DNA of 63,195 nt, filler included, from Anaerolineae bacterium (GTDB lineage Bacteria; Chloroflexota; Anaerolineae; Epilineales; Epilineaceae), in NCBI GenBank assembly GCA_029262755.1. It is 4 parts of 4 records of this genome, joined end to end, with 100 filler letters (N's around TTAATTAATTAA, not from the genome) between each part and the next. Parts side by side here need not be neighbours in the genome. Positions count along the whole stretch, not along the records: positions 46,337 to 59,464 come from JAJCYU010000046.1; 3 more parts are not named here. The stretch is one strand, 5' to 3'. A program made the position numbers and the translations under genes. The stretch's first letter is position 1; each line of letters starts with the position of its first letter. Shown here piece after piece: positions 17,927 through 59,564 of the stretch. The notes under the pieces were generated by a model. The model was not told where the DNA came from. It searched no databases and saw only the letters and a list, made by a program, of their open reading frames with translations.

Positions 17927-18026
17927 NNNNNNNNNNNNNNNNNNNNNNNNNNNNNNNNNNNNNNNNNNNNTTAATTAATTAANNNNNNNNNNNNNNNNNN
18001 NNNNNNNNNNNNNNNNNNNNNNNNNN
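17927..18026. other. Artificial contig linker
   Basis: N-run + TTAATTAATTAA (stops in all six frames) + N-run; abrupt GC shift across it. Confidence 0.98.
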
Positions 18027-46236: not shown

Positions 46237-46336
46237 NNNNNNNNNNNNNNNNNNNNNNNNNNNNNNNNNNNNNNNNNNNNTTAATTAATTAANNNNNNNN
46301 NNNNNNNNNNNNNNNNNNNNNNNNNNNNNNNNNNNN
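46237..46336. other. Artificial contig linker
   Basis: N-run + TTAATTAATTAA + N-run. Confidence 0.98.
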
Positions 46337-46337
46337 C

Positions 46338-46478
46338 ACCACCTTCGGCGGCCTCAACGTCTTCGACGGCGAGTACCCCGGCGACGACTGGACCCTCCGC
46401 ATCACCGACAACCTCCCCGGCGACAACGGCGAGCTCCGCAACTGGACCATCCAGGTAAGCACCGAGCCCATCCCGTAA
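46338..46478 (+). CDS. C-terminal fragment of a proprotein-convertase P-domain-like protein
   Basis: Hand translation: TTFGGLNVFDGEYPGDDWTLRITDNLPGDNGELRNWTIQVSTEPIP*. Confidence 0.7.
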   Translation, partial: TTFGGLNVFDGEYPGDDWTLRITDNLPGDNGELRNWTIQVSTEPIP

Positions 46479-46559
46479 CGCTTGACACTAGGGCGTAGCC
46501 GGCCCGGGATCCCGTGCCCGGGCCGGCCCCACGCCCAGCTCGCCACGACCGCGGACGTT

Positions 46560-46897
46560 GATCGCGGAAGGTGAGACTAAGGGGCAGCAAGAGTAGAAGC
46601 AGACGCAGGTGCAGGTCGCAGCGGTAGGTAGCAGATACAGCTGCAGGAAGAAGCGCCGGGCAGGAAGTTACGGGAAAGAGTCAGGCCCGGTATCCAGTAC
46701 ACGTACTCGAAGCAACACACGGAACACACGGCGCGCGCAGCAGACGGTCGCGAAGATGGTCGCAGCGACGACGCAGGATCGCGATCCACGTGCCGGCAGC
46801 ACGATACGCAGCACGTAGCGCAGCATCCCCGCAACCGCGGGACGGGTGGCCACCCGCCGACCTCCGGCCATCCCGTCTCGCGGTTGTGTTTGTTGTT
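46560..46897 (+). ncRNA. Putative GCAG-rich non-coding RNA ending in a terminator
   Basis: T-poor intergenic tract with about 15 GCAG copies (hand count), closed by CAACCGCGGGACGGGTGGCC / GGCCATCCCGTCTCGCGGTTG hairpin and a U-rich tail. Confidence 0.4.
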
Positions 46898-47172
46898 GCG
46901 AGAACGGAATCCGTGGATTTGGGCGAACGCGAGGGGGTGCAGGGTGCCCCCTTCGCGGAAGGCGCAGCGGTGGGATTGTGACGTTGGAGCGCGAGCTTTA
47001 TGGACGTTTCTGAACATCGGGTAGTCGCGCGCTGATGAGAGTATCCCATCGGCTCATATCGTTCTCGAACTGAACGCGTTCGCCCCATTTCCCGTTCGTG
47101 TCGCGTTGGGCCTTGATCGTGCCTGGACGTCGGCGCACCGTGGATCGATCCCCTCTGATGTAGGATTGCGCT

Positions 47173-49119
47173 ATGCATAATCGTGGCTGGTTTACGTTTC
47201 TTAGTTATGACGAGTCGAAAGGGGCGCCCAAGATCGATCGGGCGCTCCTGCTGCGCGTAGCTGGGTGGGCGCGCCCGTACGCCAAGGGCGTGACGGGCAT
47301 GCTGCTGCTGTTGCTCGTGATTTCGGTCGTCGAGTTGTTGCCGCCCTATCTGTACGGGCAGTTGATCAACGAGTTGGCGGGCGAAGAGCCGACGTTGACC
47401 ATCCCCCGACTCAACCTCCTGGCAGCCGGGCTGCTCGGAGCGCCGCTGATCAGCAACCTTTTGGGCGTAGCGCAGCGGCATCTCTCCGCCTCGATCGGAG
47501 AGGGGCTGATCTACGACTTGCGCGTGCAAACTTATGCGCACGTGCAACGGTTGGGTCTGCGCTTCTTCACGGAGACGAAGGCCGGCGACATTATCTCGCG
47601 CTTCAATAACGACGTGATCGGCGCCCAGAGCGCGGTGACGAACACGATCCCCAACATCGTGACGAACGTGCTCACCCTGGTCACGACGCTCGCGGTCATG
47701 ATCGCGATGGAATGGCGGTTGACGCTCTTGGCCGTGGCGGTCCTGCCGCTGTTCTTGATGCCGACGCGCCGAATCGGGCGGATCCTGCGAGTGATCCGGC
47801 GTGAAGCCGCGGAGCATCAAGCGGCGATGTCCAGCCAGCTTCAAGAGACGGTCAACGTCAGCGGCGCATTGCTGGTGCGGACCTTCGGGCGGCAGAGAGC
47901 GACCGCGGCTCGCTTCGCGGGAACGGCAGCGGCGGTGCGAGACATCGGGATCCGGCGGGCCGTCGTGGGACGCTGGTTCTTCCTGGGACTCGGCATCGCC
48001 GGGGCGATCGGAACCGCGCTCATGTATTGGGCGGGCGGCTATCTGGCGCTGAAGGAAAACCTTGATCCCGGCACGATCGTGGCATTCGCGGCCTATCTGA
48101 CCCGTTTGTACGGGCCGATCTCGGGGCTATCCAACGTGCAGGTTGAGTTCGCATCCAGCTTGGTGAGCTTCGAGCGGGTATTCGAGTACCTGGATCTACC
48201 GGTAGAAGTCGACGAGCGGGATGGCGCGGTCGAGCTGGAGAACGTCGATGGGCGGCTCGTGCTCGACGACATCTGGTTCAGCTATGCGGCGAATCCCGCG
48301 AAGGGCGGGGAAGCGGCGATGCCGCCGGAGGACGAGGCGGCGGTTCCCGCGAACGGCCTGTCGGATCCGGAGGACGATGAGGCGGTCGCCCCGGCCCGAG
48401 CGCGACGATGGGCGATTCGCGAGGTCAGCGCGGAGATCGCGCCGGGCACCGTGACGGCGCTCGTCGGCCCGAGTGGATCGGGCAAGACGACGGTCTCCTA
48501 TCTCGTGGCGCGTTTGTACGATCCGACGCGGGGGCGAATCACGTTGGACGGGCATGACCTGCGGGACCTGAGCCTGGCCACGTTGGCGCGGCACATTGGT
48601 GTGGTAACCCAAGAGACCTATCTCTTCCACGACACGATTCGGGCGAATCTAGCCTTCGCGCGGCCGGATGCGAGCCAAGATGAGATCGAGGATGCGGCAC
48701 GAGCGGCGAACATTCATGATCACGTGACGGGCCTGCCCGATGGATACGACACGGTCGTCGGAGAACGAGGCTACCGCTTGTCGGGCGGAGAGAAGCAGCG
48801 GTTGGCGCTGGCGCGTGTGATCCTCAAGGATCCGAGCATCCTCGTGCTCGATGAGGCGACGAGCCATCTGGATAGCCAGAACGAGGCCCTGGTGCAGGAA
48901 GCACTCAGCCGCGTCATGCAAGGCCGGACGAACGTCGTCATCGCGCATCGGCTTTCGACGGTGCGTGCGGCGGATCAGATCTTGGTCGTGCAAGCGGGCG
49001 AGGTCGTCGAGCGCGGAACGCACGACGAACTCCTCGCAGCGGCGGGGCTGTACTCCGATCTGCACGAGACACAGTTCCGCGAAGGCGATGCAGCGGGTGC
49101 AGGGGCCGTGCGGTCGTAG
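47173..49119 (+). CDS. ABC exporter (TMD+NBD)
   Basis: GPSGSGKT, LSGGEKQR and LDEATSHLD motifs. Confidence 0.92.
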   Translation: MHNRGWFTFLSYDESKGAPKIDRALLLRVAGWARPYAKGVTGMLLLLLVISVVELLPPYLYGQLINELAGEEPTLTIPRLNLLAAGLLGAPLISNLLGVAQRHLSASIGEGLIYDLRVQTYAHVQRLGLRFFTETKAGDIISRFNNDVIGAQSAVTNTIPNIVTNVLTLVTTLAVMIAMEWRLTLLAVAVLPLFLMPTRRIGRILRVIRREAAEHQAAMSSQLQETVNVSGALLVRTFGRQRATAARFAGTAAAVRDIGIRRAVVGRWFFLGLGIAGAIGTALMYWAGGYLALKENLDPGTIVAFAAYLTRLYGPISGLSNVQVEFASSLVSFERVFEYLDLPVEVDERDGAVELENVDGRLVLDDIWFSYAANPAKGGEAAMPPEDEAAVPANGLSDPEDDEAVAPARARRWAIREVSAEIAPGTVTALVGPSGSGKTTVSYLVARLYDPTRGRITLDGHDLRDLSLATLARHIGVVTQETYLFHDTIRANLAFARPDASQDEIEDAARAANIHDHVTGLPDGYDTVVGERGYRLSGGEKQRLALARVILKDPSILVLDEATSHLDSQNEALVQEALSRVMQGRTNVVIAHRLSTVRAADQILVVQAGEVVERGTHDELLAAAGLYSDLHETQFREGDAAGAGAVRS

Positions 49120-49265
49120 AGGCCAAGGCGCCGTCCGGATCCGACCCGAAAATAGTTCTTTACGCGTCACGAAAGCCCGGCTATACTTGCGCGTCGTTGC
49201 CCTTATTCGCGGTCTGTCATTGATCGCCCGAAACTCTACGTATGCAGAAGGTAGGAGCATTACCC

Positions 49266-49550
49266 ATGGCCAATATGGCATCCGCCAAGAAGCGTGCCCG
49301 TCAGAATCCGAAGCTCTATGCTCGCAACCGGTGGTATCGTGGCCGAGCGCGCACCTTCATAAAGCGCGCGCGAGCCCTGATGGAAGCGGGCGAGAAGGAC
49401 GAGGCGCAAACCATGATGCAGATGGCGTGCCGCGCGTTGGACATGGCCGCCCAGAAGGGTGCGATCCACGACAACAACGCGTCGCGCCGCAAGTCGCGCC
49501 TGATGAAGTTGTTCAACAAGTCCTTCAACGAGGCTGCAGTCGAGGCCTAG
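49266..49550 (+). CDS. rpsT: 30S ribosomal protein S20
   Basis: MANMASAKKRARQ...LDMAAQKGAIHDNNASRRKSRL; AGGAG RBS; TTTACG-17-TATACT promoter candidate at 49159-49187. Confidence 0.95.
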   Translation: MANMASAKKRARQNPKLYARNRWYRGRARTFIKRARALMEAGEKDEAQTMMQMACRALDMAAQKGAIHDNNASRRKSRLMKLFNKSFNEAAVEA

Positions 49551-49588
49551 ACCCGGCCGCTCTCTGTCTCAACATTCGTCGTACGACC

Positions 49589-49620
49589 GGACATCGCCCA
49601 CACGGGCGGTGTCCTTTGTC
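49589..49620 (+). terminator. Intrinsic terminator after rpsT
   Basis: GGACATCGCCC-ACAC-GGGCGGTGTCC-TTTGTC. Confidence 0.75.
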
Positions 49621-49627
49621 GTTGCTG

Positions 49628-49675
49628 TTGACTCCGAACACTTGTTCTGATATCCTCCAGTAGAACAGACGTTCG
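49628..49675 (+). promoter_or_regulatory. Sigma70 promoter with two LexA (GAAC-N4-GTTC) boxes
   Basis: TTGACT-17-TATCCT; CGAACACTTGTTCT (49635-49648) in the spacer and AGAACAGACGTTCG (49662-49675) over the start site. Confidence 0.8.
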
Positions 49676-49740
49676 AATTCTCGTATCGCACTGTAGCCGC
49701 CACCTGGCTGCGGTTCGGAACCGGCGAAGGAGGGTCGAAA

Positions 49741-50409
49741 ATGACGCATGTGGCCCAGGGATTGTTGCTCGACGACACCATCGATGTGAGCGCGCGGAAG
49801 CCGCAGCTCGTAGCCGTCGATGCGCCTATCGCTCCGGAGCTTTCCCCGGCGGAGGCACGGGCCAACGCCCGACGACGCCATCGACCGGCATTCTACCGAC
49901 GCGACCGACAGCTCAAGCTCGTGCTGCTACCGCCGTTGGCGCCCGCCCCCGCGGACGCGTCTGCTCCCATCCTAGATCTAGACCGCGTTGCAGCCACGAT
50001 CGCTTCGGTGACGGAGCGGACCGACGGCGCCAGGGGCCTCGAAGCACCGATCGCGTTCAAGGCGAGTGCCACGGGTGTTCGGACGATTCAGGTGAACGAT
50101 GAGAGCATGCGTGACGCCGGAGTTGCGGCGGGCGACGCGCTCCTGATCGGCGGGACCGGCGGTGACGCCTTGGCCGATTCGCCCGCTGGCGTTGAATTCG
50201 ATGACGGCGCTCTTCTGGCACTGCGTGTGTCGGATGGTCCTCTGTGTCTGCGACGCGTGTTCAACGCGGGGGATGATTGGCTGCATCTTCAGGCCGAGGA
50301 TCCCGAGATTCCGGTCGCAACAGCTCAGCGTTGCGATGTCTCGGTCGAGGGCAAGGTGATCACGATCGTACGTGCCGTCCGCGGGCCTGAAGTCCACGAT
50401 CGTAGCTAG
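49741..50409 (+). CDS. LexA/S24 C-terminal-domain-like protein, degenerate, no obvious wHTH
   Basis: VNDESMRDAGVAAGD...LCLRRV...LQAEDP...VEGKVITIVR aligns by eye to the LexA C-terminal domain; GAAGGAGG RBS. Confidence 0.7.
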   Translation: MTHVAQGLLLDDTIDVSARKPQLVAVDAPIAPELSPAEARANARRRHRPAFYRRDRQLKLVLLPPLAPAPADASAPILDLDRVAATIASVTERTDGARGLEAPIAFKASATGVRTIQVNDESMRDAGVAAGDALLIGGTGGDALADSPAGVEFDDGALLALRVSDGPLCLRRVFNAGDDWLHLQAEDPEIPVATAQRCDVSVEGKVITIVRAVRGPEVHDRS

Positions 50410-50720
50410 CTGGCACACCGTCGGGACCCGCTCCGCGCGTCGATTCCGACCCGACACAGCGGTTCTGCGGCGCCCGCACAGCGCCGCGTTCGCGGTCCCA
50501 ATTGAGCGAGGGCGCCTCGTAGCGGAGGCGCCCTTCGCTCGTTCGCGTCCCGACGGAGAGCCGGGCGAAGAGGCGGCCGGGGTCGCGCGTCCGGTGAGAC
50601 GGTAGATTCGGGTGCGCGACCGGCGTTTCAGCGGATTCTGCGCCGGCGAGGGGCCGACGATCGACGCCAATCTCCTGCTCGTTCTTGTGCCGCACTTGGC
50701 CGTCGGTATCCTTGCCGCTG

Positions 50721-53700
50721 ATGAACGCAATCGATCCGGACTCCAGGGCCCTGCCCGCGGACCCGCCTACCCGACCTGAGGCCCGCGGTGAGCCGAGTCC
50801 GGAGGGCGGTACGGGCGCGTCCATCCCACGCACCCGCGAGCGAGCGTCGGCGATGCTGCGGTCGGTCTGGATCCGTTGGCGGGCCACCCTTGCGGTCACG
50901 CTGCTGCTGTTCGCGCTTCCGCTGGTGTTGCTTGCCCCGCAGACCCTCGGCGGGCGGTCTCCGATCCCCTACGACGCGCTCGTCTCAGATCCCGTGTACC
51001 GCGCCGACCTGCGCGCGGCCGGCGTCGAGCAGCCGCAGAACGAACTCGTAGCGGACTTGGTCTACCAAAACCTAGTCTGGAAGGAACTGCTCGTCGACAG
51101 CCTGTCGGACGGGGAGTGGCCGCTTTGGAACCCGTACATCTTGGGCGGCGTGCCGTTCTTGGCCGGCGGCCAGCACGGCCTCTTCGCACCCCAGACGTTG
51201 CTCTTCGCCTGGCTCGACACCGACCGAGCGTTCGGTTGGGGCGCCGTGCTGCTGCTGTGGTGGGCGGGGCTTGGCGCGTTCGCGTTGTCCCGCGCACTAC
51301 GGCTGGCGACACCGGCGGCCATCGTGGCCGCCGTCGCATGGTCGCTCTCGACCTTGTTCAGCACCAACGTCGTGTTTCCCATGATTCAAGGCGCGATGGC
51401 CTGGACACCGTGGCTCCTGGCGGGGATCTCGGCGGTGACCGACCTTCGGCCCGGGGCGCCGCCGCGCGGTTGGCTACCACGGGGTCGGGACGCCGCGCGC
51501 CTCGTCGGGACGGCGCTGGCCGCCGCGCTCGTGGCGTTGGCAGGACACGCGGAGATGCTGATCTACGCGGCGCTTGTCGCGAGCACGTGGGCGGCATGGC
51601 GCCTGTACGGGATCGGCCACGCGCAGGGACGTCGCGCGGCCGTGCACGTCGGCGTTTGGCTCGGCCTTGCTGCGCTGGCGGGCGCGCTCGTGTCCGCTGT
51701 TCAATGGCTGCCATTGCTCGAGCTGGCCCGTACGAGTTCGCGCGCCGGCGCGGTCTACGACGACGCTGTGCAACACGCCTTCGGCTTGCGCCAGCTCGCC
51801 ACGTTCTTCGTTCCGGACTTCTACGGCAACCCGGCCCACCACGCGGTGCCATTGCTGGAAGGCCGCCGATCCGCGGGGCTGGCCACGCATGCCATGTGGG
51901 GCACGGCCTGGGGCACGCGCAACTACGTCGAAGCGGCCGCCTATGTCGGCCTCCTGCCCTGGCTTCTTGCCGTCGTCGCATTGTTCGATCACAAGCGACG
52001 AACGACAGCCCGATTCTTTGCATTGGTAGCGGGGCTCTCCCTGGCTTTCGCCTTTGGGACGCCCCTATACCGGCTGGTGTTCGCAATTCCGGGCATCGAT
52101 CAACTCCGTTCGCCGTTTCGCTGGGTGTTCCCGTTTGTGCTGGCCATGGCGATCCTTTCCGCGCTTGGATTGGACGCTCTCCTGCAGCCGGATGCGCGCA
52201 GGGCCACGCGCGCCCAATGGGCGGCGCGCGCGGTGGGCCTCGGCGCGGTGGTGGGCGGGATCGGTGCTGGTTTCGCCTTGGCGCTCGCGTGGGTCGTTCC
52301 GGCGCGGTGGACGTCCTTGGTGGAACGCGCCGTAGGCGTGCTGCCCGACGCCCGCGCGCCCGTACTGGACACGTTTGGGTCGATGGCAGCGTTTGCAGCC
52401 TATCAATACTGGAACCTGCTCCACGCGGTCGTGTTTCTGACCCTGTCGGGAATCATTCTCTCCGCCCTGGCACGACCCGGGTTGCTCGGCTATCAGACGC
52501 GGCGCCTCGCCGCTGCCGCCGTGACCATCCTTGCATTGGACCTCTGGCTCATCGGCTTCGGCTTCAACCCGGCCGTGGATCCGGCCCTCGGGCAGATCGA
52601 GCCCGCGGCGGTGACCTTCCTCGCCGAGGCCTCGGAGCTCGAATGGGGTCGCGTCATCGGCTACGGCGACGCCAAGATTCTCTGGCCCAACACGGGCATG
52701 CGCGCCGGAATTCGCGACCTGCGCGGCTACGACTCGATCATTCCGTCCTGGATTGCCGAGACCCTGGATGCAATCAGCGAACAGGACGGATGGCTGCGCT
52801 TCAACCGGATCGGCAATCCTGTGACGCCCGACGCATTGACGCACCCGGCGCTCGCCGCGTTTGGAGGGCGCTACGTCGTCACACGCGAACGACTGGATGT
52901 GCCGGGACTCGACCTGATCCATGACGAGGACGTTCGCGTCTACGAGAACACGGCGGCGATGCCCCGTGCATGGGTTGTCACGAACGTGCGGGTGGTGGCG
53001 GACCGCACGTCGTTGCTCGAGGATCTGCGCACCTTGGAGCCGCGCGAAACGGTGTTGCTTGAGGAGGACCCGGATCTAAGCGTGTGGGATAGCTTGCGAC
53101 AAGGGCGGCAGGTATTCCAGCCATGGACGCGGGTCCGCTCGGAGAGCAGGAATGAGCTGGAGCTCGACGTGTTTGCTGGAGCGCCCGGAATGCTCGTGTT
53201 GTCGGAGAGCTGGTTCCCCGGCTGGCGGGCGTGGGTGACGCCGGCCGTTGCGGGTGGCCCGCGCGCCGTGGAAGTCCCGGTGTTCCGCGCGAACGGTGCC
53301 ATGCGGGCGGTTCCGGTGCCGGCCGGCCGCATGACGGTGCGGTTTCAGTACTTCCCGATGTCGGTGAAGATCGGGCTCTATGCCAGCTTCCTCGGCCTGA
53401 TCCTCTTGTTCCTAGCCGCGGTCTATGCGCTGTGGATGCGCTTCGTACGCATCGACGAAGACGATGCCGTGCAGCGGGTCGCGGTCAACAGCGTCGGCCC
53501 GATCGGCGCGGCGCTGTTGGGCAAGGTCCTGCTCTTCGTATTCGCGATGCTCTACTTGCGGGTGCTTGGGCCGGAGCAAGCCGGCAAGTACTACCTGGCC
53601 GTCACCGTCTACACCCTGGCCGATATCATCACGAACTTCGGCCTGAATCTGCTCGTCGCACGCGAAGTCGCGCGGCGGCCGGCGGATGCCGCGGCGTTGC

Positions 53701-54920
53701 TCGCAAGCAGCACCGCGCTGCGCCTCTTGTTGTGGTTGGTCGCGCTGCCCGTGATCGCAGGCTACATCGCGCTGCAATCCGCGACCGGACATCCGCTCGA
53801 TGGGGATACCCGCGCGGCGATTGGGCTGTTGGCGCTGGCGCTCGTGCCGGCCAACCTCAACACGGCATTGTCGTCGATCTTCCAGGGCCTCGAGCGCATG
53901 GTGCTGCCCGCGGCGGTCTCGATCGTGAGCACCCTGTTCACGGTGTCGCTCGGCGCGCTGGCCTTGTTGGCCGGATGGGGCTTCGTGGGCCTGGCCGGTA
54001 TGGCCATCCTCACGAATTGGTTGACGTTCGCCATCCTGCTCACCCTGGTCCTACGCGCCGGGATCCGCCCGTGGGGCCGTGTGTCGCCGCGCATGATGCG
54101 CTGGATGGCCGCGGCTTCGTTCCCGTTGATGCTCAACCACCTGCTGCAGGTCGTGTTCTTCAAGATCGACGTGCTGCTGCTCGAGCCGCTCAAGGGCAGC
54201 CTTGTCGTCGGTTGGTACCAGAGCGCATACAAGTGGGTGGAGGCATTGTTGATCCTGCCCGCCTACCTGACCATGGCCCTCTTTCCGTTGATGAGCCGCA
54301 AGGCCGAGAACGATCCCGAAGGCCTGCATCAGGCCATGTTCAACGTCATCCGCTGGCTGGTTGCGATCGCGCTGCCCGTCGCGGTCGTGACCACCTTCCT
54401 CGCGGATCCTTTGATCCGGCTGCTGGGCGGGGATGAGTACCTGCCGCAGGGCGCCCAGACCCTTCAGGTGATGATCTGGTTCCTACCGTTCTCGTACGTC
54501 AACGGGGTTGTCCAGTATGTGCTGATCGCGTTGGACAGGCAGCGTTGGATCACGCTTAGCTTTACGATCGCGGCCACGTTCAACATCGTCGCCAATTGGC
54601 TCGTGATCCCGACCTACGGCCATGTCGGTGCCGCCGCGGTGACCATCGTATCGGAGATCATCCTGATGGCCCCGTTCTTCTGGGGCTTGCGCGATCTGGG
54701 CGCACCGCCCTTGCTCGTTCTCGCCTGGCGGCCCTTGCTCGGTGCGAGCGCGATGGCGCTGATCCTGGCCGGCGCGGCCGACGCAGGCCTGCCGGGCGGC
54801 CCGGCAGCTCTCGCCTCGGTGATCGGCTATGTGATCGTGCTACGCGTACTCGGCTGGCTCTCGGACGAGGATCGTGCGGTACTGGACCGCCTCGTTCCCG
54901 GGCGAAGGCCTACCGGCTAG
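50721..54920 (+). CDS. YfhO-family (GT-C-like) membrane protein fused to a Wzx-like oligosaccharide flippase
   Basis: PLWNPYILGGVPF, GYDS and SESWFPGWRA (YfhO); from about 53470 LRVLGPEQAGKY, NFGL..LVAREVA and KIDVLLL...VGWYQSAYK (flippase). Confidence 0.82.
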   Translation: MNAIDPDSRALPADPPTRPEARGEPSPEGGTGASIPRTRERASAMLRSVWIRWRATLAVTLLLFALPLVLLAPQTLGGRSPIPYDALVSDPVYRADLRAAGVEQPQNELVADLVYQNLVWKELLVDSLSDGEWPLWNPYILGGVPFLAGGQHGLFAPQTLLFAWLDTDRAFGWGAVLLLWWAGLGAFALSRALRLATPAAIVAAVAWSLSTLFSTNVVFPMIQGAMAWTPWLLAGISAVTDLRPGAPPRGWLPRGRDAARLVGTALAAALVALAGHAEMLIYAALVASTWAAWRLYGIGHAQGRRAAVHVGVWLGLAALAGALVSAVQWLPLLELARTSSRAGAVYDDAVQHAFGLRQLATFFVPDFYGNPAHHAVPLLEGRRSAGLATHAMWGTAWGTRNYVEAAAYVGLLPWLLAVVALFDHKRRTTARFFALVAGLSLAFAFGTPLYRLVFAIPGIDQLRSPFRWVFPFVLAMAILSALGLDALLQPDARRATRAQWAARAVGLGAVVGGIGAGFALALAWVVPARWTSLVERAVGVLPDARAPVLDTFGSMAAFAAYQYWNLLHAVVFLTLSGIILSALARPGLLGYQTRRLAAAAVTILALDLWLIGFGFNPAVDPALGQIEPAAVTFLAEASELEWGRVIGYGDAKILWPNTGMRAGIRDLRGYDSIIPSWIAETLDAISEQDGWLRFNRIGNPVTPDALTHPALAAFGGRYVVTRERLDVPGLDLIHDEDVRVYENTAAMPRAWVVTNVRVVADRTSLLEDLRTLEPRETVLLEEDPDLSVWDSLRQGRQVFQPWTRVRSESRNELELDVFAGAPGMLVLSESWFPGWRAWVTPAVAGGPRAVEVPVFRANGAMRAVPVPAGRMTVRFQYFPMSVKIGLYASFLGLILLFLAAVYALWMRFVRIDEDDAVQRVAVNSVGPIGAALLGKVLLFVFAMLYLRVLGPEQAGKYYLAVTVYTLADIITNFGLNLLVAREVARRPADAAALLASSTALRLLLWLVALPVIAGYIALQSATGHPLDGDTRAAIGLLALALVPANLNTALSSIFQGLERMVLPAAVSIVSTLFTVSLGALALLAGWGFVGLAGMAILTNWLTFAILLTLVLRAGIRPWGRVSPRMMRWMAAASFPLMLNHLLQVVFFKIDVLLLEPLKGSLVVGWYQSAYKWVEALLILPAYLTMALFPLMSRKAENDPEGLHQAMFNVIRWLVAIALPVAVVTTFLADPLIRLLGGDEYLPQGAQTLQVMIWFLPFSYVNGVVQYVLIALDRQRWITLSFTIAATFNIVANWLVIPTYGHVGAAAVTIVSEIILMAPFFWGLRDLGAPPLLVLAWRPLLGASAMALILAGAADAGLPGGPAALASVIGYVIVLRVLGWLSDEDRAVLDRLVPGRRPTG

Positions 54921-54929
54921 GGCGCGTCG

Positions 54930-55454
54930 CTAGCCCTCCAACGCGTCCGTGCACTGTTCCCGAAACCCGCAACCGGCGCAGCGCCGCGGATCGTCGTGGC
55001 TCCTGCGGACGACGCGCGACGACCGGTCGGCCCGTACCTGAGCAATGGCCGCGAGCAGATCGCGGCGCCGCGCGCGCGTCCATGGCACCGTCCATCGCGC
55101 GCCGGCATACGCCAGCACGCCAAACGGCGGTGGGTTACCGGTCTCGGCCTCGACGAGCAAGCCGTAGGCGGACAGCTGCCGCAGATCGCCGAGGTATGGC
55201 GCCGCGGCCCGCCGATTCGGCTTGACCTCGACGGGTACCAGCCTTCCGCGCTTGCCGAGCAGATAGTCAGGACGGCCGACGAGCCCGTGTTGGGGAGCAC
55301 GCAAGGTGCGGGCCGGATGAACGGCGTCCGCATCGTCCGATTCGCGAAGCCGAAGGCCCGCGTGCAGCACATCGGAGGCAAGATGGCGCGCACGGATGCG
55401 AAGCGACGCCGCCAGGCCCAGCAGCAGAAGGCCGACCAGCAGCGGTGCACTCAC
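54930..55454 (-). CDS. Cas4-like PD-(D/E)xK nuclease, C-terminal half with N-terminal TM helix
   Basis: GLVGRPDY...PVEVK, QLSAY and CAGCGFREQC motifs; GTG 55454 overlaps the upstream TGA. Confidence 0.8.
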   Translation of the reverse strand: MSAPLLVGLLLLGLAASLRIRARHLASDVLHAGLRLRESDDADAVHPARTLRAPQHGLVGRPDYLLGKRGRLVPVEVKPNRRAAAPYLGDLRQLSAYGLLVEAETGNPPPFGVLAYAGARWTVPWTRARRRDLLAAIAQVRADRSSRVVRRSHDDPRRCAGCGFREQCTDALEG

Positions 55455-55720
55455 CCAGCGACAGCCGCGAACATCGACCAGACTCCGTATAGGACAAGCA
55501 CCGTACCGATCCATGCAAGCCAACGGCTCCATCCGGCGGCATGCAGTCCGCGCTCCACGCGCCGTGCATGCTGTTGATGGGCCTCTCGGCCCTGCTGCAG
55601 ACGCGCGCCGCCCGCGGAGGGTTGCAAGCCCTCGACATGGCGCAGCCACCAAGCGCGTCGACAAAACGCGTGCTCGCCGAGCTCGCTTGCGCGTACGATG
55701 GGACGGACGGGCGGGTCGAT
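55451..55720 (-). CDS. Cas4-like N-terminal half with C-terminal TM helix (not in ORF track; apparent ATC start)
   Basis: Hand translation: (I)DPPVRPIVRASELGEHAFCRRAWWLRHVEGLQPSAGGARLQQGREAHQQHARRV...WLAWIGTVLVLYGVWSMFAAVAG*; GGGAG SD 6 nt before ATC. Confidence 0.75.
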   Translation of the reverse strand: MDPPVRPIVRASELGEHAFCRRAWWLRHVEGLQPSAGGARLQQGREAHQQHARRVERGLHAAGWSRWLAWIGTVLVLYGVWSMFAAVAG

Positions 55721-55753
55721 AGGCGTCTCCCGAAAGCCGAAAACGATGGGCAG

Positions 55754-55782
55754 AGGCTAGCTAGAACATGCGTTCGCGTCAA
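55754..55782 (-). promoter_or_regulatory. Sigma70 promoter with a LexA box in its spacer, facing the split Cas4 pair
   Basis: TTGACG-CGAACGCATGTTCTAGC-TAGCCT; GAAC-N4-GTTC box at 55763-55776. Confidence 0.78.
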
Positions 55783-55793
55783 GAAGTGATTCG

Positions 55794-55822
55794 TTGACCG
55801 GGCTCGGGCTGCCCACTACCAT
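55794..55822 (+). promoter_or_regulatory. Sigma70 promoter for the Rdx selenoprotein gene
   Basis: TTGACC-17-TACCAT. Confidence 0.6.
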
Positions 55823-55882
55823 CCGCAACAGATGCGTCTTCCGGAATTGCGGCGCACTCGAATCGCCAGGAGGATAGTCGCT

Positions 55883-56122
55883 ATGAAGGTCAAGGTTACC
55901 TACTGCAGTCAGTGAAACTACGCACCACGATCCGCCAGTCTGGCGGAAGCGGTGTTGGGAGAGTTTGGGACGGACATCACGTCCTGGACGCTCGTGCCGA
56001 GCAGCGGCGGTGTACACGAGGTGGAGGTGGACGGCACGCTCGTGTTTTCGAAGAAGGAGACCGGTCGCCATCCCACCGCGGCGGAGATCATCGAAGCGAT
56101 CAAGGAACGAAGCGCAGCGTAG
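55883..56122 (+). CDS. SelT/SelW/SelH (Rdx) family selenoprotein (not in ORF track)
   Basis: MKVKVTYCSQ-U(TGA 55913-55915)-NYAPRSASLA...PSSGGVHEVEVDGTLVFSKKETGRHP; AGGAGG RBS; SECIS-like hairpin at 55922-55955. Confidence 0.9.
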
Positions 56123-56270
56123 CTCTCGGTTGCGATCGTCGGTCGATACTTGGGAGTTTGGTCACCACGGGGGGGTGCGGGTTGACTCGCGATTTCGTCC
56201 CTGTTTGGTTGCACCCCCGCAGCTTCGAGCCATGGGCTGATCGGGCCTCAGGGAGCCTCAGGGAGCAATC

Positions 56271-57557
56271 GTGAACGACGCCGTCGAGCAGATCTTGCAA
56301 AGCGCCCGTGAACAGGCCGGCAACGATACGGCGGACCTCATCCTGGCGCTGGACCAGCTGGCGGAGCAGGCGCCCGACCAGGTCGACGTCTACTTGGCGC
56401 GGGGCATGTTCTATCGCCAACGTTCTGCGTGGAATCTCGCGTGCGACGAGTTCGGCTACGCCGCCGAACTCGCGCCGGAGGACGCACGCGCGTGGCGTGC
56501 CCTCGGCGATTGCGAGTTCGCTCGGGGCGCGTGGGAGGCGGCGGCCGAAGCCCTGTCCGAGGCCGCCTCGCTCGTGGACGGACATTCGGAACAATGGGCG
56601 CGCGTGGGAGACTGTTGGCTGGCCCTGGACGAACCCGGTCGGGCGATCGCCGCCTTCGAAGAGGGTCTGGCCTTCGACGAGACATCCGGCCTGCTCTACC
56701 TGGGTCGGGCACGCGCCACGGTTTCGATGGATCTGCTCGAGGACGCGGAGGAGGACATCGCCCTCGCGCGCAGCAACGGCGCCGATCACGCGGATTGTGC
56801 GGAACTGTCTGCGCGAATCGCGTTGATCCGTGGCGAGATCGAGGCGGCCATCGCGCTGCTCGATCCGTTGATCGGAGACGCGCCGGACCGCGTGGAGGCA
56901 TTGCGCCTACGGGGCGACGCGCGTTGGGAGCTCGGCGAGATCTCGGACGCGCTTGCCGACTACGAACACTCGCTGAAGGTGGCGCCGGACGACCCGGATA
57001 CGCTCTTGGCGGTTGCTGAGTGCCACCTTGCTCTCGGCAATCTCGACGGCGCCGTTGCCGCGGCCGAGGCCGTGATCAAGGCCAGCCGGGCCGAGGATTC
57101 TGCGGGGCTGGAGTTGCTCGCACGTGCGCTGCAGGCCCGGGGCGATTGGGCGGCGGCGCGGTCTGCGCTAGAGAAGGGTCTACGCGTGGACGGCGCGGAT
57201 TCCGCGCCGCTGTACTTGCAGCGAGCGCGGCTCCACCTGGCTTCCGGCCGGCCAAACCTAGCGTGGCGCGACGCCCGGTGGGCCATCGAAGATGATGCGG
57301 AATATGCACCCGCCTACGTTCTTCGGGGACGGCTTGCGCTCGAGTTGGAGGGAGCGGCCGAGGCGCTCGCCGACCTCGATGCGGCCGTCGAGCTCGATCC
57401 GCTCTCCGGCTCCGCATGGGCGTGGCGCGGCCGCGCGAAGGAACTCGAAGGGGACATGAGCGAAGCGGAAGCCGATTGGGCCGAGGCCGAGGCCCTGCTC
57501 CCGGACCACGATCCGCTCCGCGACACGCTCAATGACTGGCGCCGCCGCGCAGGGTAG
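56271..57557 (+). CDS. Tetratricopeptide repeat protein
   Basis: Many roughly 34-aa Ala/Leu helical repeats (A..RG.A...LG...A..D...A..LDP). Confidence 0.85.
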   Translation: MNDAVEQILQSAREQAGNDTADLILALDQLAEQAPDQVDVYLARGMFYRQRSAWNLACDEFGYAAELAPEDARAWRALGDCEFARGAWEAAAEALSEAASLVDGHSEQWARVGDCWLALDEPGRAIAAFEEGLAFDETSGLLYLGRARATVSMDLLEDAEEDIALARSNGADHADCAELSARIALIRGEIEAAIALLDPLIGDAPDRVEALRLRGDARWELGEISDALADYEHSLKVAPDDPDTLLAVAECHLALGNLDGAVAAAEAVIKASRAEDSAGLELLARALQARGDWAAARSALEKGLRVDGADSAPLYLQRARLHLASGRPNLAWRDARWAIEDDAEYAPAYVLRGRLALELEGAAEALADLDAAVELDPLSGSAWAWRGRAKELEGDMSEAEADWAEAEALLPDHDPLRDTLNDWRRRAG

Positions 57558-57716
57558 TGCTTCCGAATTGGGAATTGGTCGCGGCCGAGCCCGTATCTGC
57601 CGGTTTCGGCCCCATGGCAGCGACCATCCGGTCGTCACGCGACGGCTGCGCTGCGCGTCCTCCATGAACGATACCAGCAACCCCCACGTGCCGTCGTCGT
57701 CGAAAGGCTTGTATTC

Positions 57717-59464
57717 ATGAATCCCCGCACCTACTGCCGCGGACTTGCGGCCAGCCTCATCGCGCTCTTCGTGTTTCTGTCGGGTGATACCCGTACCGAC
57801 GCACAGGCGCCGTTCGGCCTCACTGTTCGCCTTGCCGCCACCGCGCAAGACGCTACGCAGGCGGCAGGCGTCGACGTTCGCATGGCTTCACCATGGATCC
57901 GGTGGACGACCCTGCCGGAAATCGCCGTGACCGCGGAGCTGTGGCGCGGAGGCGAACGCGTCGCCACGACCACATCGGAGTCCGACGGCACGGGAAACGT
58001 CGTGCTCGGCCTCTTCGGGCCGATGGGGCCGGCGCGTGTGCAGGGCGGCGACGAGCTGCTCGTTCGTGCCGGCGAGGGCGAGGTCGAGCTGCGGCTTACG
58101 GCGCCGGATCTTGTGGCCGATGTCGACGTGCTTCGCGGCCGCGTCGTGGGTCGCGCTCCGGCCGACTCCTCGCTGACGCTCGCGCTCTGGCGCGCAGGCG
58201 CTCTCGTTTCCGAAGACCCTGTGCTAACCCGCACGTTGACCACGGACGGCAGCGGCCTGATCGATGTGGATCTCAGCAATGTCGGATTGCGTCCCGGAGA
58301 CGCCGGACACTTGATCGTCCGTGATGAGGACGGCCATCGCTTTGTCGCCGGGTTCACGGCTCTCGGCATTGAGGTTCAGCTCGGCAACACCTTCCTGACG
58401 GCCAGCGCGACGCAGGGCACCACCGTCACGTTGGCAATCGAACCCTCGCCCGATGGTGCCGCGCCGATCCAACGGCGCCTCGAAGCCGGCCTGCCCTTCG
58501 ACCAGGCCCCCGTGGCCAGCCGAGTTTCGATCGGCCTTCAACGGGGCGAGGGTGCGCCCAGCCCACTTGCTCCGGGCGATCGTCTGCGGGTTTCGCGCAC
58601 GGGTGGGTTGGTCACCTACGTCACGCAGAGGATCTCGTTACCCGCGATGGAAATCAATATCGTTTCGCGCGACGGCCATGTCCGCGGCACGGGACCCGTG
58701 AGCAGCAGCCTCGAGCTCGTGCTGAACGGCCCGCTGGGCGAATTGGTGCGGTCGACGGTCGAGACGGACGCCACGGGGACCTTCGACACGGTGGTCGACG
58801 CGGAACCGGGGCCCGGATGGCAAGCGACATTGCTGTGGGAGCAGGGGATCTTTCGTGTCCTTCGCTTCGGGGTCGTTCCTCAAGTCCAGGTGCGCGTGCA
58901 CACGTCGTCCGTGCGCGGGCTGAACCGTCCGCAAGCGCCTGTGAGCGCCACGTTGCATAGCGGAGGCAGCCATATCGGCACGTGGTCCACCGTGGCGGAT
59001 AGCCAGGGACGTTGGCAGCTCCAGTTGCGGGATGAGAGCGGCCAAGGTGTCGGCGACGAGCCGGGGCCGGCACATCGCGTGCGCCCGGGTGATGTACTCG
59101 AGATCGACCTCGCCGGCGGCGACCCGATCAACTTGGTCGTCCCACCGATGTCCGCCCGAAGTGATGCGGACGCGGAGACCGTCTCCGGAGCAGTGCCCCC
59201 GGGAACCCGATTGCAGCTCACGATCGACGGTGGATTAGACGGTACGCCGGGAAGCGAGCTCGAGCCGGTTCAAAATCCCGGCGGCCCCGCGCTCGTCGTG
59301 AAGCTCGATGCGGGAACGGACGGGCGCTACGTTGCGGATCTGGGCGCGCAGAGCGGCCCGGACGGGCAGCCCATCGATCTGGAACCACCCATGTTCGGCT
59401 CGCTCGTGATCACGCGCGACGACGGGCACCAATTCCTCTTGCGTTGGGCGCCGCTCTCGGTTCA
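57717..59464 (+). CDS. Large secreted beta-rich repeat protein (cut at contig end)
   Basis: Signal peptide; recurring V.G.AP...(T/A)D..G.(F/W/Y)...L.PGD units. Confidence 0.6.
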
Positions 59465-59564
59465 NNNNNNNNNNNNNNNNNNNNNNNNNNNNNNNNNNNN
59501 NNNNNNNNTTAATTAATTAANNNNNNNNNNNNNNNNNNNNNNNNNNNNNNNNNNNNNNNNNNNN
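59465..59564. other. Artificial contig linker
   Basis: N-run + TTAATTAATTAA + N-run. Confidence 0.98.

Follow-up and report, generated by a model that had tools for sequence, protein, structure and literature searches.

Cas4 of CRISPR systems, represented by the families PF01930 and TIGR00372 and by the structures 4ic1 (SSO0001), 4r5q (Pcal_0546), 8d3l and 7mi4 (Cas4-Cas1), is typically a single soluble polypeptide of about 170-220 amino acids (aa). In solved Cas4 proteins a 1 + 3 arrangement of cysteines binds an iron-sulfur (Fe-S) cluster. Here we describe a locus from an Anaerolineae bacterium in which the same motifs in the same order (ASx..C.R, G..H, D, ExK, QxxxY, CxxCx5C), together with the 1 + 3 cysteines, are distributed over two polypeptides. 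The two genes, a small one (N-half) and a large one (C-half), are referred to below as the split pair. Both are minus-strand genes of the contig C46 (13,128 bp), which occupies positions 46337-59464 of the 63,195-nt stretch of DNA that we analyzed (the window). Unlike CRISPR Cas4, the split pair has a transmembrane (TM) helix on each polypeptide at the break point and is predicted to be membrane-bound; its source genome, which is 84% complete, gives no match to Cas1, and its score falls below the equivalog cut-off.

Other nucleases of the same superfamily offer partial precedents. AddB and Dna2 contain Fe-S RecB-family nuclease domains, and NERD is a precedent for a membrane-anchored PD-(D/E)xK enzyme. 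In contrast to the split pair, these are single chains whose Fe-S or TM elements are not divided between two gene products. ACE1, found with long-A Argonautes (PMC12094033), and the Solo-Cas4 of Methanosarcina mazei (PMC12501428) are, like the split pair, Cas4-family nucleases outside CRISPR adaptation, whereas both are single soluble proteins according to their abstracts. The solo-Cas4 proteins of Chloroflexi (Hudaiberdiev et al. 2017, PMC5704561) probably belong to the same clade as the split family, and the supplement of that study gives one or two Cas4 family proteins in Herpetosiphon, Roseiflexus, Chloroflexus, Anaerolinea and Caldilinea. As the words 'transmembrane', 'split', 'truncated' and 'N-terminal' have no occurrence in its main text, the small partner, the TM helices and the two-subunit nature are not described there. 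We found no description of a split, bipartite or membrane-bound Cas4 in the full-text literature, a corpus whose coverage leaves out most subscription journals. The split pair represents a previously undescribed family, a two-subunit, membrane-anchored variant of solo-Cas4.

The source assembly has 428 contigs and a GC content of 66.8%. The window joins four of these contigs (part of C44, C45, C46 and part of C47) through runs of N at 17927-18026, 46237-46336 and 59465-59564. The contigs are merely concatenated, so gene neighborhood is not readable across these runs.

Cas4 motifs and transmembrane helices of the two genes

The N-half gene occupies 55451..55720 (minus strand) and has 89 codons if it starts at the ATC at 55720; its frame is open from 55756 to the TGA at 55451-55453. 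The translation reads ...ETPIDPPVRPIVRASELGEHAFCRRAWWLRH...QQGREAHQQHA...WSRWLAWIGTVLVLYGVWSMFAAVAG, in which the motif part, ...PIVRASELGEHAFCRRAWWLRH...GREAHQQHA..., is followed by a hydrophobic end. This corresponds to the N-terminal segment of Cas4 (ASE..C.R and G...H), in which the first of the Fe-S cysteines lies; a TM helix forms the C-terminal end (55454..55510, minus strand; Kyte-Doolittle hydropathy 1.79 over the best 19 residues). The single cysteine codon, within FCRR at 55661..55663 (minus strand), would supply the fourth Fe-S ligand; the residue falls in an invariant column (C16) and aligns to a cysteine of the Cas4 structure 4r5q. The N-half matches profile positions 5-49 of 160 in PF01930 (E 0.053, 14 bits, below the cut-off) and positions 4-47 in TIGR00372 (E 0.014, 15.2 bits). 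Eight columns are invariant in an alignment of 24 N-halves (A, S, E, C, R, A, G, H); all are kept in this copy, and they are the Cas4 N-terminal motif residues. When the 24 sequences were scanned singly at E<=1, PDDEXK_1 was found in 14 (best E 0.0023) and Cas_Cas4 in 10 (best E 0.00066), with weak Dna2 matches in two. With a profile built from all 24, the C.R and G..H motifs aligned to 4r5q (E 0.12); the top structure match of this profile was a low-complexity designed coiled coil, reached via the TM part. The likeness of the N-half to Cas4 is weak by score and specific by position.

The C-half gene (54930..55454, minus strand) encodes 174 aa from the GTG at 55454, while the public gene call starts at the ATG at 55514 instead (194 aa, P0003). 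It has a third-position GC content (GC3) of 0.78. The protein opens with a TM helix (55395..55451, minus strand; residues 2-20, Kyte-Doolittle 1.89), and the PD-(D/E)xK core follows with the motifs GRPDYL, VEVK, QLSAY and C159-x2-C162-x5-C168. The predicted catalytic residues D63 and E76-x-K78, in GRPDYL and VEVK, are encoded at 55221..55268 (minus strand). D63, E76, K78, Q93 and Y97 are invariant across 18 family members, this protein included. The three predicted C-terminal Fe-S cysteines (54951..54980, minus strand) likewise occupy invariant columns, and their spacing aligns with that of the solved Cas4 8d3l. The C-half matches positions 54-159 of the 160 in PF01930 (E 3.7e-5), positions 60-179 of TIGR00372 (E 1.1e-12) and PF12705 (PDDEXK_1; E 1.7e-5). 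A profile of 18 C-half relatives retrieves the Cas4 structures 8d3l (E 6.5e-8), 7mi4, 4r5q and 4ic1. As the C-half starts no earlier than Cas4 profile position 54-60, the first cluster ligand and the G..H helix are missing from it.

Judged by these profile matches, the two open reading frames (ORFs) are complementary parts of one Cas4 domain. The first-pass annotation of this DNA, which had proposed a Cas4-like nuclease in two membrane-anchored halves, described the ORFs, TM helices, Cas4 motifs, gene overlap, promoter and a LexA-type box in this region, and all were found in place, on the minus strand. The Cas4 similarity it saw in each half is borne out by complementary stretches of PF01930 and TIGR00372, with the N-half below the cut-off. 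The TGA of the N-half (55451-55453) overlaps the GTG of the C-half (55452-55454) in the sequence GTGA, a 4-nt overlap of different frames. An independent assembly (run X1), which may come from the source sample, agrees in every letter of the overlap, the ATC and the box. In a different study (X2), a contig of 151 nt that spans 55647-55797 differs at two positions, 55724 being one. Runs X2-X4 cover pieces of 112-151 nt only and were kept out of any inference on habitat or strain.

A TM segment is present in all 24 N-halves (19-residue Kyte-Doolittle value at least 1.79), followed by a tail of 0-10 residues, and an N-terminal TM segment is present in all 18 C-halves. Lysine and arginine residues lie on the domain side of the helices in both halves. 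By the positive-inside rule, the N-half would be oriented N-in/C-out and the C-half N-out/C-in, with both soluble parts in the cytoplasm.

The complex was modeled as two chains with a 4Fe-4S cluster, from alignments of our own. The model reached an ipSAE of 0.78 (runs 0.79, 0.78 and 0.76), against 0.00 for the best control; that mark is reached by 116 of 157 solved complexes and by 2 of 215 mismatched pairs, in a calibration that held no ligand. The runs have at least 96% of their contacts in common, and the partner pLDDT (predicted local distance difference test) is at least 76. The modeled interface runs helix to helix (N-half 50-79 against C-half 1-29) and through the soluble parts (C-half 133-170 against N-half 2-32), with Cys16 of the N-half set against residues 152-153 and the 158-168 cysteine region of the C-half. 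The contact list is consistent with convergence of the four cysteines on one cluster, and the model supports an association of the halves via the two TM helices and the cysteine region. Since the pair re-forms a fold with solved structures, the passing score may reflect likeness to Cas4.

All the above indicate that the locus probably encodes one Cas4-family nuclease (RecB-like PD-(D/E)xK, Fe-S) made as two obligate, membrane-anchored subunits. The small subunit would give the N-terminal helices, the first cluster cysteine and the histidine of G...H, and would end in its TM helix; the large subunit would bring the CxxCx5C cysteines and, with D/ExK + QxxxY, the catalytic core. Pairing of the TM helices in the membrane would allow the cytoplasmic parts to form one Cas4 fold together on the inner membrane face. 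As the G..H helix and the first core strand are on opposite sides of the break, both chains would contribute to the Fe-S cluster (1 + 3 Cys) and probably also to the active site, with the histidine from one chain and D/E/K from the other. By analogy with characterized Cas4 enzymes, such an enzyme would most likely trim or degrade DNA ends, and only on membrane-proximal DNA. The heterodimeric, membrane-tethered Fe-S nuclease joined by TM helices that the first-pass annotation predicted is well supported by the conserved split and co-occurrence described below, by the invariant cysteine and histidine residues of the small half and by the complex model and its controls. From these we infer heterodimer formation, Fe-S binding and nuclease activity.

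Several observations weigh against this reading. Every Cas4 profile match of the N-half stays under the curated cut-offs; the PF01930 gathering cut-off is passed by the C-half only, and marginally (24.3 bits vs 22.7), and the C-half score of 48.2 bits for TIGR00372 is under the 65-bit equivalog cut-off. This C-half is also divergent: its best relatives are 41-58% identical to it, the family's GLP.GRV.YSD stretch is missing, and it has QLSAYG in place of QLAAYC. The start of the small gene is the main reason why our confidence in this particular copy is not higher. The N-half frame has no ATG, GTG or TTG upstream of the cysteine motif; its first canonical start is a TTG at 55627, which leaves the 58 aa of the ORF listing. 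Canonical starts are found in 72 of 76 N-half relatives (46 ATG, 18 GTG, 8 TTG), at a median of 6.5 codons ahead of the motif, and two of the four exceptions look like artefacts of script indexing. The 89-codon ORF that had been proposed (55451-55720) thus has its frame, motif and TM helix, while its start is an ATC. This ATC, at 55720, is the best candidate start, and a Shine-Dalgarno-like GGGAG (55727..55731, minus strand), 6 nt upstream of it, would drive initiation. Either the N-half may be made here at a low level or its start may have been lost very recently; the motif residues are intact. The small gene is probably uncalled in the source genome.

The split in related genomes

To place the split in the family, both half-profiles were run as a six-frame scan over fetched loci, which gave 96 unique C-half loci, 92 of them with at least 400 nt upstream. 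An N-half ORF lies directly upstream in 68 of the 92, in another frame in 59 and in frame behind a stop in nine. In eight more it lies 640-880 nt upstream with one gene between, 16 have no N-half within the locus, and fused halves occur in none. The N-half profile was applied to five genomes of the class with no N-half in the locus and found it in all five, 4.4-5 kb upstream on the same strand in three and on another contig in two. The first-pass annotation held that the split would be a frameshift or an assembly error if homologs were normally one continuous ORF; the gene pair is instead kept as two genes, and co-occurs even when unlinked.

The halves are also separate in wider searches. A profile search of 1.84 billion cluster representatives returned 1342 N-half relatives at E<=0.001 (551 at E<=1e-10); the best 150 of the 1342 are 70-183 aa long, and none runs on into the nuclease core. 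The Atlas clusters nearest the N-half are labeled 'hypothetical protein' and have no common Pfam family. C-half relatives number 173 at E<=0.001, the 120 best being 98-200 aa long and none of them a fusion. Those inspected have a hydrophobic helix at the start and no N-terminal Cas4 segment, and their sources label them 'CRISPR-associated exonuclease Cas4'. Acidobacteriota (Pyrinomonadaceae and Bryobacteraceae) are represented among the C-half relatives as well. The C-half is present in 24 of 41 genomes of the class-level relatives of the window, its own genome included (12 of 20 high-quality ones); among species-representative genomes, it occurs in no fewer than 583 stretches. Of these, the best 80 are nearly all labeled Chloroflexota, cultured Herpetosiphon species among them, and the cultured Herpetosiphon aurantiacus DSM 785 carries the pair. 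For this large chromosomal family of Chloroflexota, division over two genes is the usual arrangement and a conserved one.

No cas gene was found among 132 Pfam-annotated ORFs of 16 related loci, and no Argonaute neighbor in the annotated related loci. The contig itself is only 13 kb long, so the absence of cas genes from it alone says little. Periodic 18-mers flagged 14 contigs of the genome, and the four inspected hold no CRISPR array; they are tandem or coding repeats with identical 'spacers'. The CRISPR-free nature of the pair that the first-pass annotation proposed is supported by the lack of a Cas1 match in the 84%-complete genome and by the lack of cas genes in the 16 annotated loci.

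Three other explanations of the pair were weighed against this material. One Cas4 gene that a frameshift or an assembly error has split, i.e. a pseudogene, would account for two ORFs that overlap by 4 nt in different frames and jointly cover one Cas4 profile, and for a small ORF without a canonical start. It is extremely improbable, because no related locus is fused and the halves of most adjacent pairs lie in different frames; moreover, a whole gene separates the halves in eight loci, 4-5 kb or a contig boundary separates them in five genomes, the best relatives of either half include no fusion, and the X1 assembly is identical across the junction. A fused reading would also put two TM helices in the middle of the fold. 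If the large ORF were instead a self-sufficient membrane-anchored nuclease with three cysteines, and the small ORF an unrelated membrane protein or unexpressed, the 16 loci with no adjacent N-half, the sub-threshold N-half profile matches and the missing start here would all be explained. But the N-half turned up elsewhere in each of the five such genomes searched, its invariant residues are those of the Cas4 N-terminal motif and align to a solved Cas4, the complex model passes its controls, and the C-half is short of the first cluster ligand and the G..H helix; we find this account quite unlikely.

The pair could also be a Cas4 working in trans in CRISPR adaptation, as the names given to its relatives by their sources suggest and as would fit best profile and structure matches that are CRISPR Cas4 proteins. 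Against this stand the missing Cas1 and cas genes, the repeats of the four inspected contigs, which are not arrays, the score under the cas4 equivalog cut-off, and conserved neighbors of another kind (rseP, translin-like, ykuD and hisS genes), which make a role in adaptation very improbable. With two obligate subunits as the preferred reading, the proteins called 'CRISPR-associated Cas4' in many Chloroflexota genomes would be only the larger part of a two-subunit, membrane-bound enzyme without a CRISPR link, whose small partner gene is labeled hypothetical where it is called at all. If this is true, the pair is a natural split enzyme in which the Fe-S cluster, and probably the active site, is completed only upon pairing of the TM helices, and it bears on Fe-S protein assembly, on recognition between membrane helices and on engineered split nucleases. 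Through its cultured hosts it would also give a testable entry point to the cellular role of solo-Cas4 enzymes. A family that is widespread, mislabeled and easy to test in such hosts is of moderate to high interest.

Putative promoter and LexA-type box of the split pair

The intergenic region upstream of the N-half contains a putative minus-strand promoter, TTGACG-17 nt-TAGCCT (55754..55782), with TTGACG at 55782-55777 and TAGCCT at 55759-55754. Its 17-nt spacer holds an exact GAAC-N4-GTTC palindrome, GAACGCATGTTC, at 55764..55775. In Chloroflexota, older work gives GAAC-N4-GTTC as the LexA box. The same palindrome is given as the LexA box of Firmicutes and Actinobacteria in PMC3323433.

We compared the 60 exact boxes of the source genome with 11 control palindromes of the same composition, using a gene model based on codon usage (82% coding) that missed the C-half gene itself. 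By this model 33 of the 60 boxes are intergenic, vs 146 of 656 control sites (Fisher p 2e-7), and 22 of the 60 have a called gene starting no more than 200 nt downstream, vs 55 of 656 (p 1.6e-8). Two other classifiers were discarded. Stop-to-stop frames (GC3 >= 0.78) made 28 of 60 boxes and 297 of 656 controls 'non-coding' and were non-discriminating, and a codon-phase GC classifier was too strict, since it placed just 37% of random positions 'inside a gene'. An exact box, GGAACACCTGTTCC, lies 40-50 nt upstream of the high-GC lexA gene, which is on contig C205, and recA has a box with one mismatch upstream. Twenty genes downstream of boxes, picked blind to function, include dnaE-like, radA, mrfA-like (with the domains of a DEAD/MZB/HNH helicase), herA and gyrB genes. 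On this sequence evidence, GAAC-N4-GTTC is a credible LexA box type in the source genome. Read on the plus strand, the nuclease box has the GAACA form, as do the sites of lexA, dnaE, radA, herA and the mrfA-like gene.

The promoter that the first-pass annotation drew around the box has its elements and spacing in place. It fits the consensus at 8 of 12 positions only, below the threshold of the consensus scan, which reports in this region only a plus-strand promoter (55794-55822) that serves the divergent Rdx/SelW-like gene. The SOS control that the same annotation proposed stands insofar as the box is of the type that the genome uses for LexA and sits in the promoter spacer. It fails as a conserved trait, since among 76 unique N-half loci an exact box within 250 nt upstream occurs in one, the window's own, and no exact box occurs within 800 nt in the loci of 19 relatives. 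Seven boxes with one mismatch are found in the 76 loci, at scattered positions and at about chance level. The box is absent from the relatives checked, so the family as a whole does not have it, and any SOS control would be confined to this lineage.

The box could therefore be a chance match, or it could serve the divergent gene, with the pair being constitutive as in its relatives. Its rarity in related loci, the weak minus-strand promoter, an intergenic region common to a plus-strand gene, and a genomic total of 60 boxes, close to the 48 or so expected from base composition, all favor this explanation, as does the background: about 13 of the 33 intergenic boxes are expected by chance, and from the excess over controls likely only about 60% of intergenic exact boxes are real sites. 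On the other side, the only plausible promoter of the minus strand has the box exactly within its 17-nt spacer, the box stays 19 nt outside the plus-strand promoter, counted from the -35 hexamer of the latter, its type is strongly enriched upstream of genes, lexA and repair genes included, and its GAACA form recurs at those sites. We consider a chance or foreign box quite possible, though on balance doubtful. LexA control of the nuclease pair appears moderately probable from the real-site rate, the position of the box in the promoter spacer and the GAACA form. This suggests that, in the source genome alone, the pair may have been recruited into the SOS regulon via a box in its promoter spacer. 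Such a link would be local to this genome; if true, it shows an SOS regulon recruiting a nuclease.

Further boxes were noted during this comparison. Two exact boxes at 49636-49647 and 49663-49674 (C46 3300 and 3327), 27 bp apart, precede a 222-aa ORF (49741-50409) without a Pfam family, a candidate SOS gene 6 kb from the split pair. A similar double box stands ahead of an SLT transglycosylase gene on contig C17 (6385, 6412). The predicted LexA regulon includes two SLT-domain lytic transglycosylases, a divergent herA/DUF6909 pair and a glyoxalase/bleomycin-resistance-like gene, with boxes for these genes on contigs C17 (6385, 6412), C160 (5797), C28 (8547) and C259 (2492). In an Ardenticatenaceae locus (L031), the gene directly upstream of the split pair is a DUF6909 gene. 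A second lexA is located on contig C90 (737-928, minus strand), which is AT-rich, unlike the 67% GC genome, and is probably a mis-binned contig or a mobile element.

Gene neighborhoods

Neighbors of the split pair were counted by profile over 100 loci that include a few duplicates and many kin. A gene for an RseP-type M50/PDZ site-2 protease lies directly upstream on the same strand in 49 of the 100 loci (among L024-L102). In the two Chloroflexia loci annotated that far (L027 and L056), rseP closes an frr-uppS-cdsA-rseP cluster. The adjacency might have a functional reason or be due to positional inertia. According to work on E. coli RseP, site-2 proteases accept single-span substrates with almost no external tail and no prior trimming. 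The small subunit would be such a substrate: it is a predicted type-II single-span protein with a tail of 0-10 residues in all 24 sequences, and rseP stands upstream in about half of the loci. For these reasons the TM helices might serve as a switch as well as an anchor, with regulated intramembrane proteolysis turning the nuclease on or off. Cleavage of one helix would either set the enzyme free or break up the Fe-S cluster and active site that the chains share, and the trigger would be envelope or DNA-damage stress. We regard such a switch as unlikely.

A translin-like gene lies directly upstream of the small gene in 19 of the 100 loci, from Anaerolineae, Caldilineae and others (translin-linked loci L002, L012, L017, L019, L032, L050, L054, L055, L064, L071, L084, L089, L091, L095-L097, L100 and L103); the gene in L064 matches PF01997 at E 7e-7. 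In seven of the 19 a YkuD L,D-transpeptidase gene is inserted between the halves. Bacterial translin homologs are, to our knowledge, uncharacterized. As part of the same unlikely reading, the linkage would hint at a nucleic-acid-end pathway peculiar to Chloroflexota. A gene for an M3 peptidase is found upstream in seven of the 100 loci and hisS downstream in nine. The first-pass annotation had suggested that the nuclease may act in repair, DNA uptake or defense. The recurrent neighbors are housekeeping genes, rseP and translin-like genes, with no defense or competence genes among them.

In the window, the gene convergent with the pair (50685-54920, plus strand) encodes a membrane protein of 1411 aa with a polysaccharide-flippase domain. 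Its last ~470 residues are a Polysacc_synt/MatE-type flippase, the first ~900 have no Pfam match, and its stop codon (54918-54920) is 9 nt from that of the C-half (54930-54932). A consensus scan of the sequence returned no terminators. The divergent neighbor (55883-56122, plus strand) is Rdx/SelW-like (PF10262, E 6.8e-22). It contains an in-frame TGA at 55913-55915, which would give a C-S-Q-U motif if it codes for selenocysteine, and a short GC hairpin (CGCCA..TGGCG) lies 3' of this TGA. SelA is found in the source genome (E 4.5e-136). The Rdx/SelW-like gene is likely a selenoprotein gene that ordinary ORF calling shortens to 56 aa.

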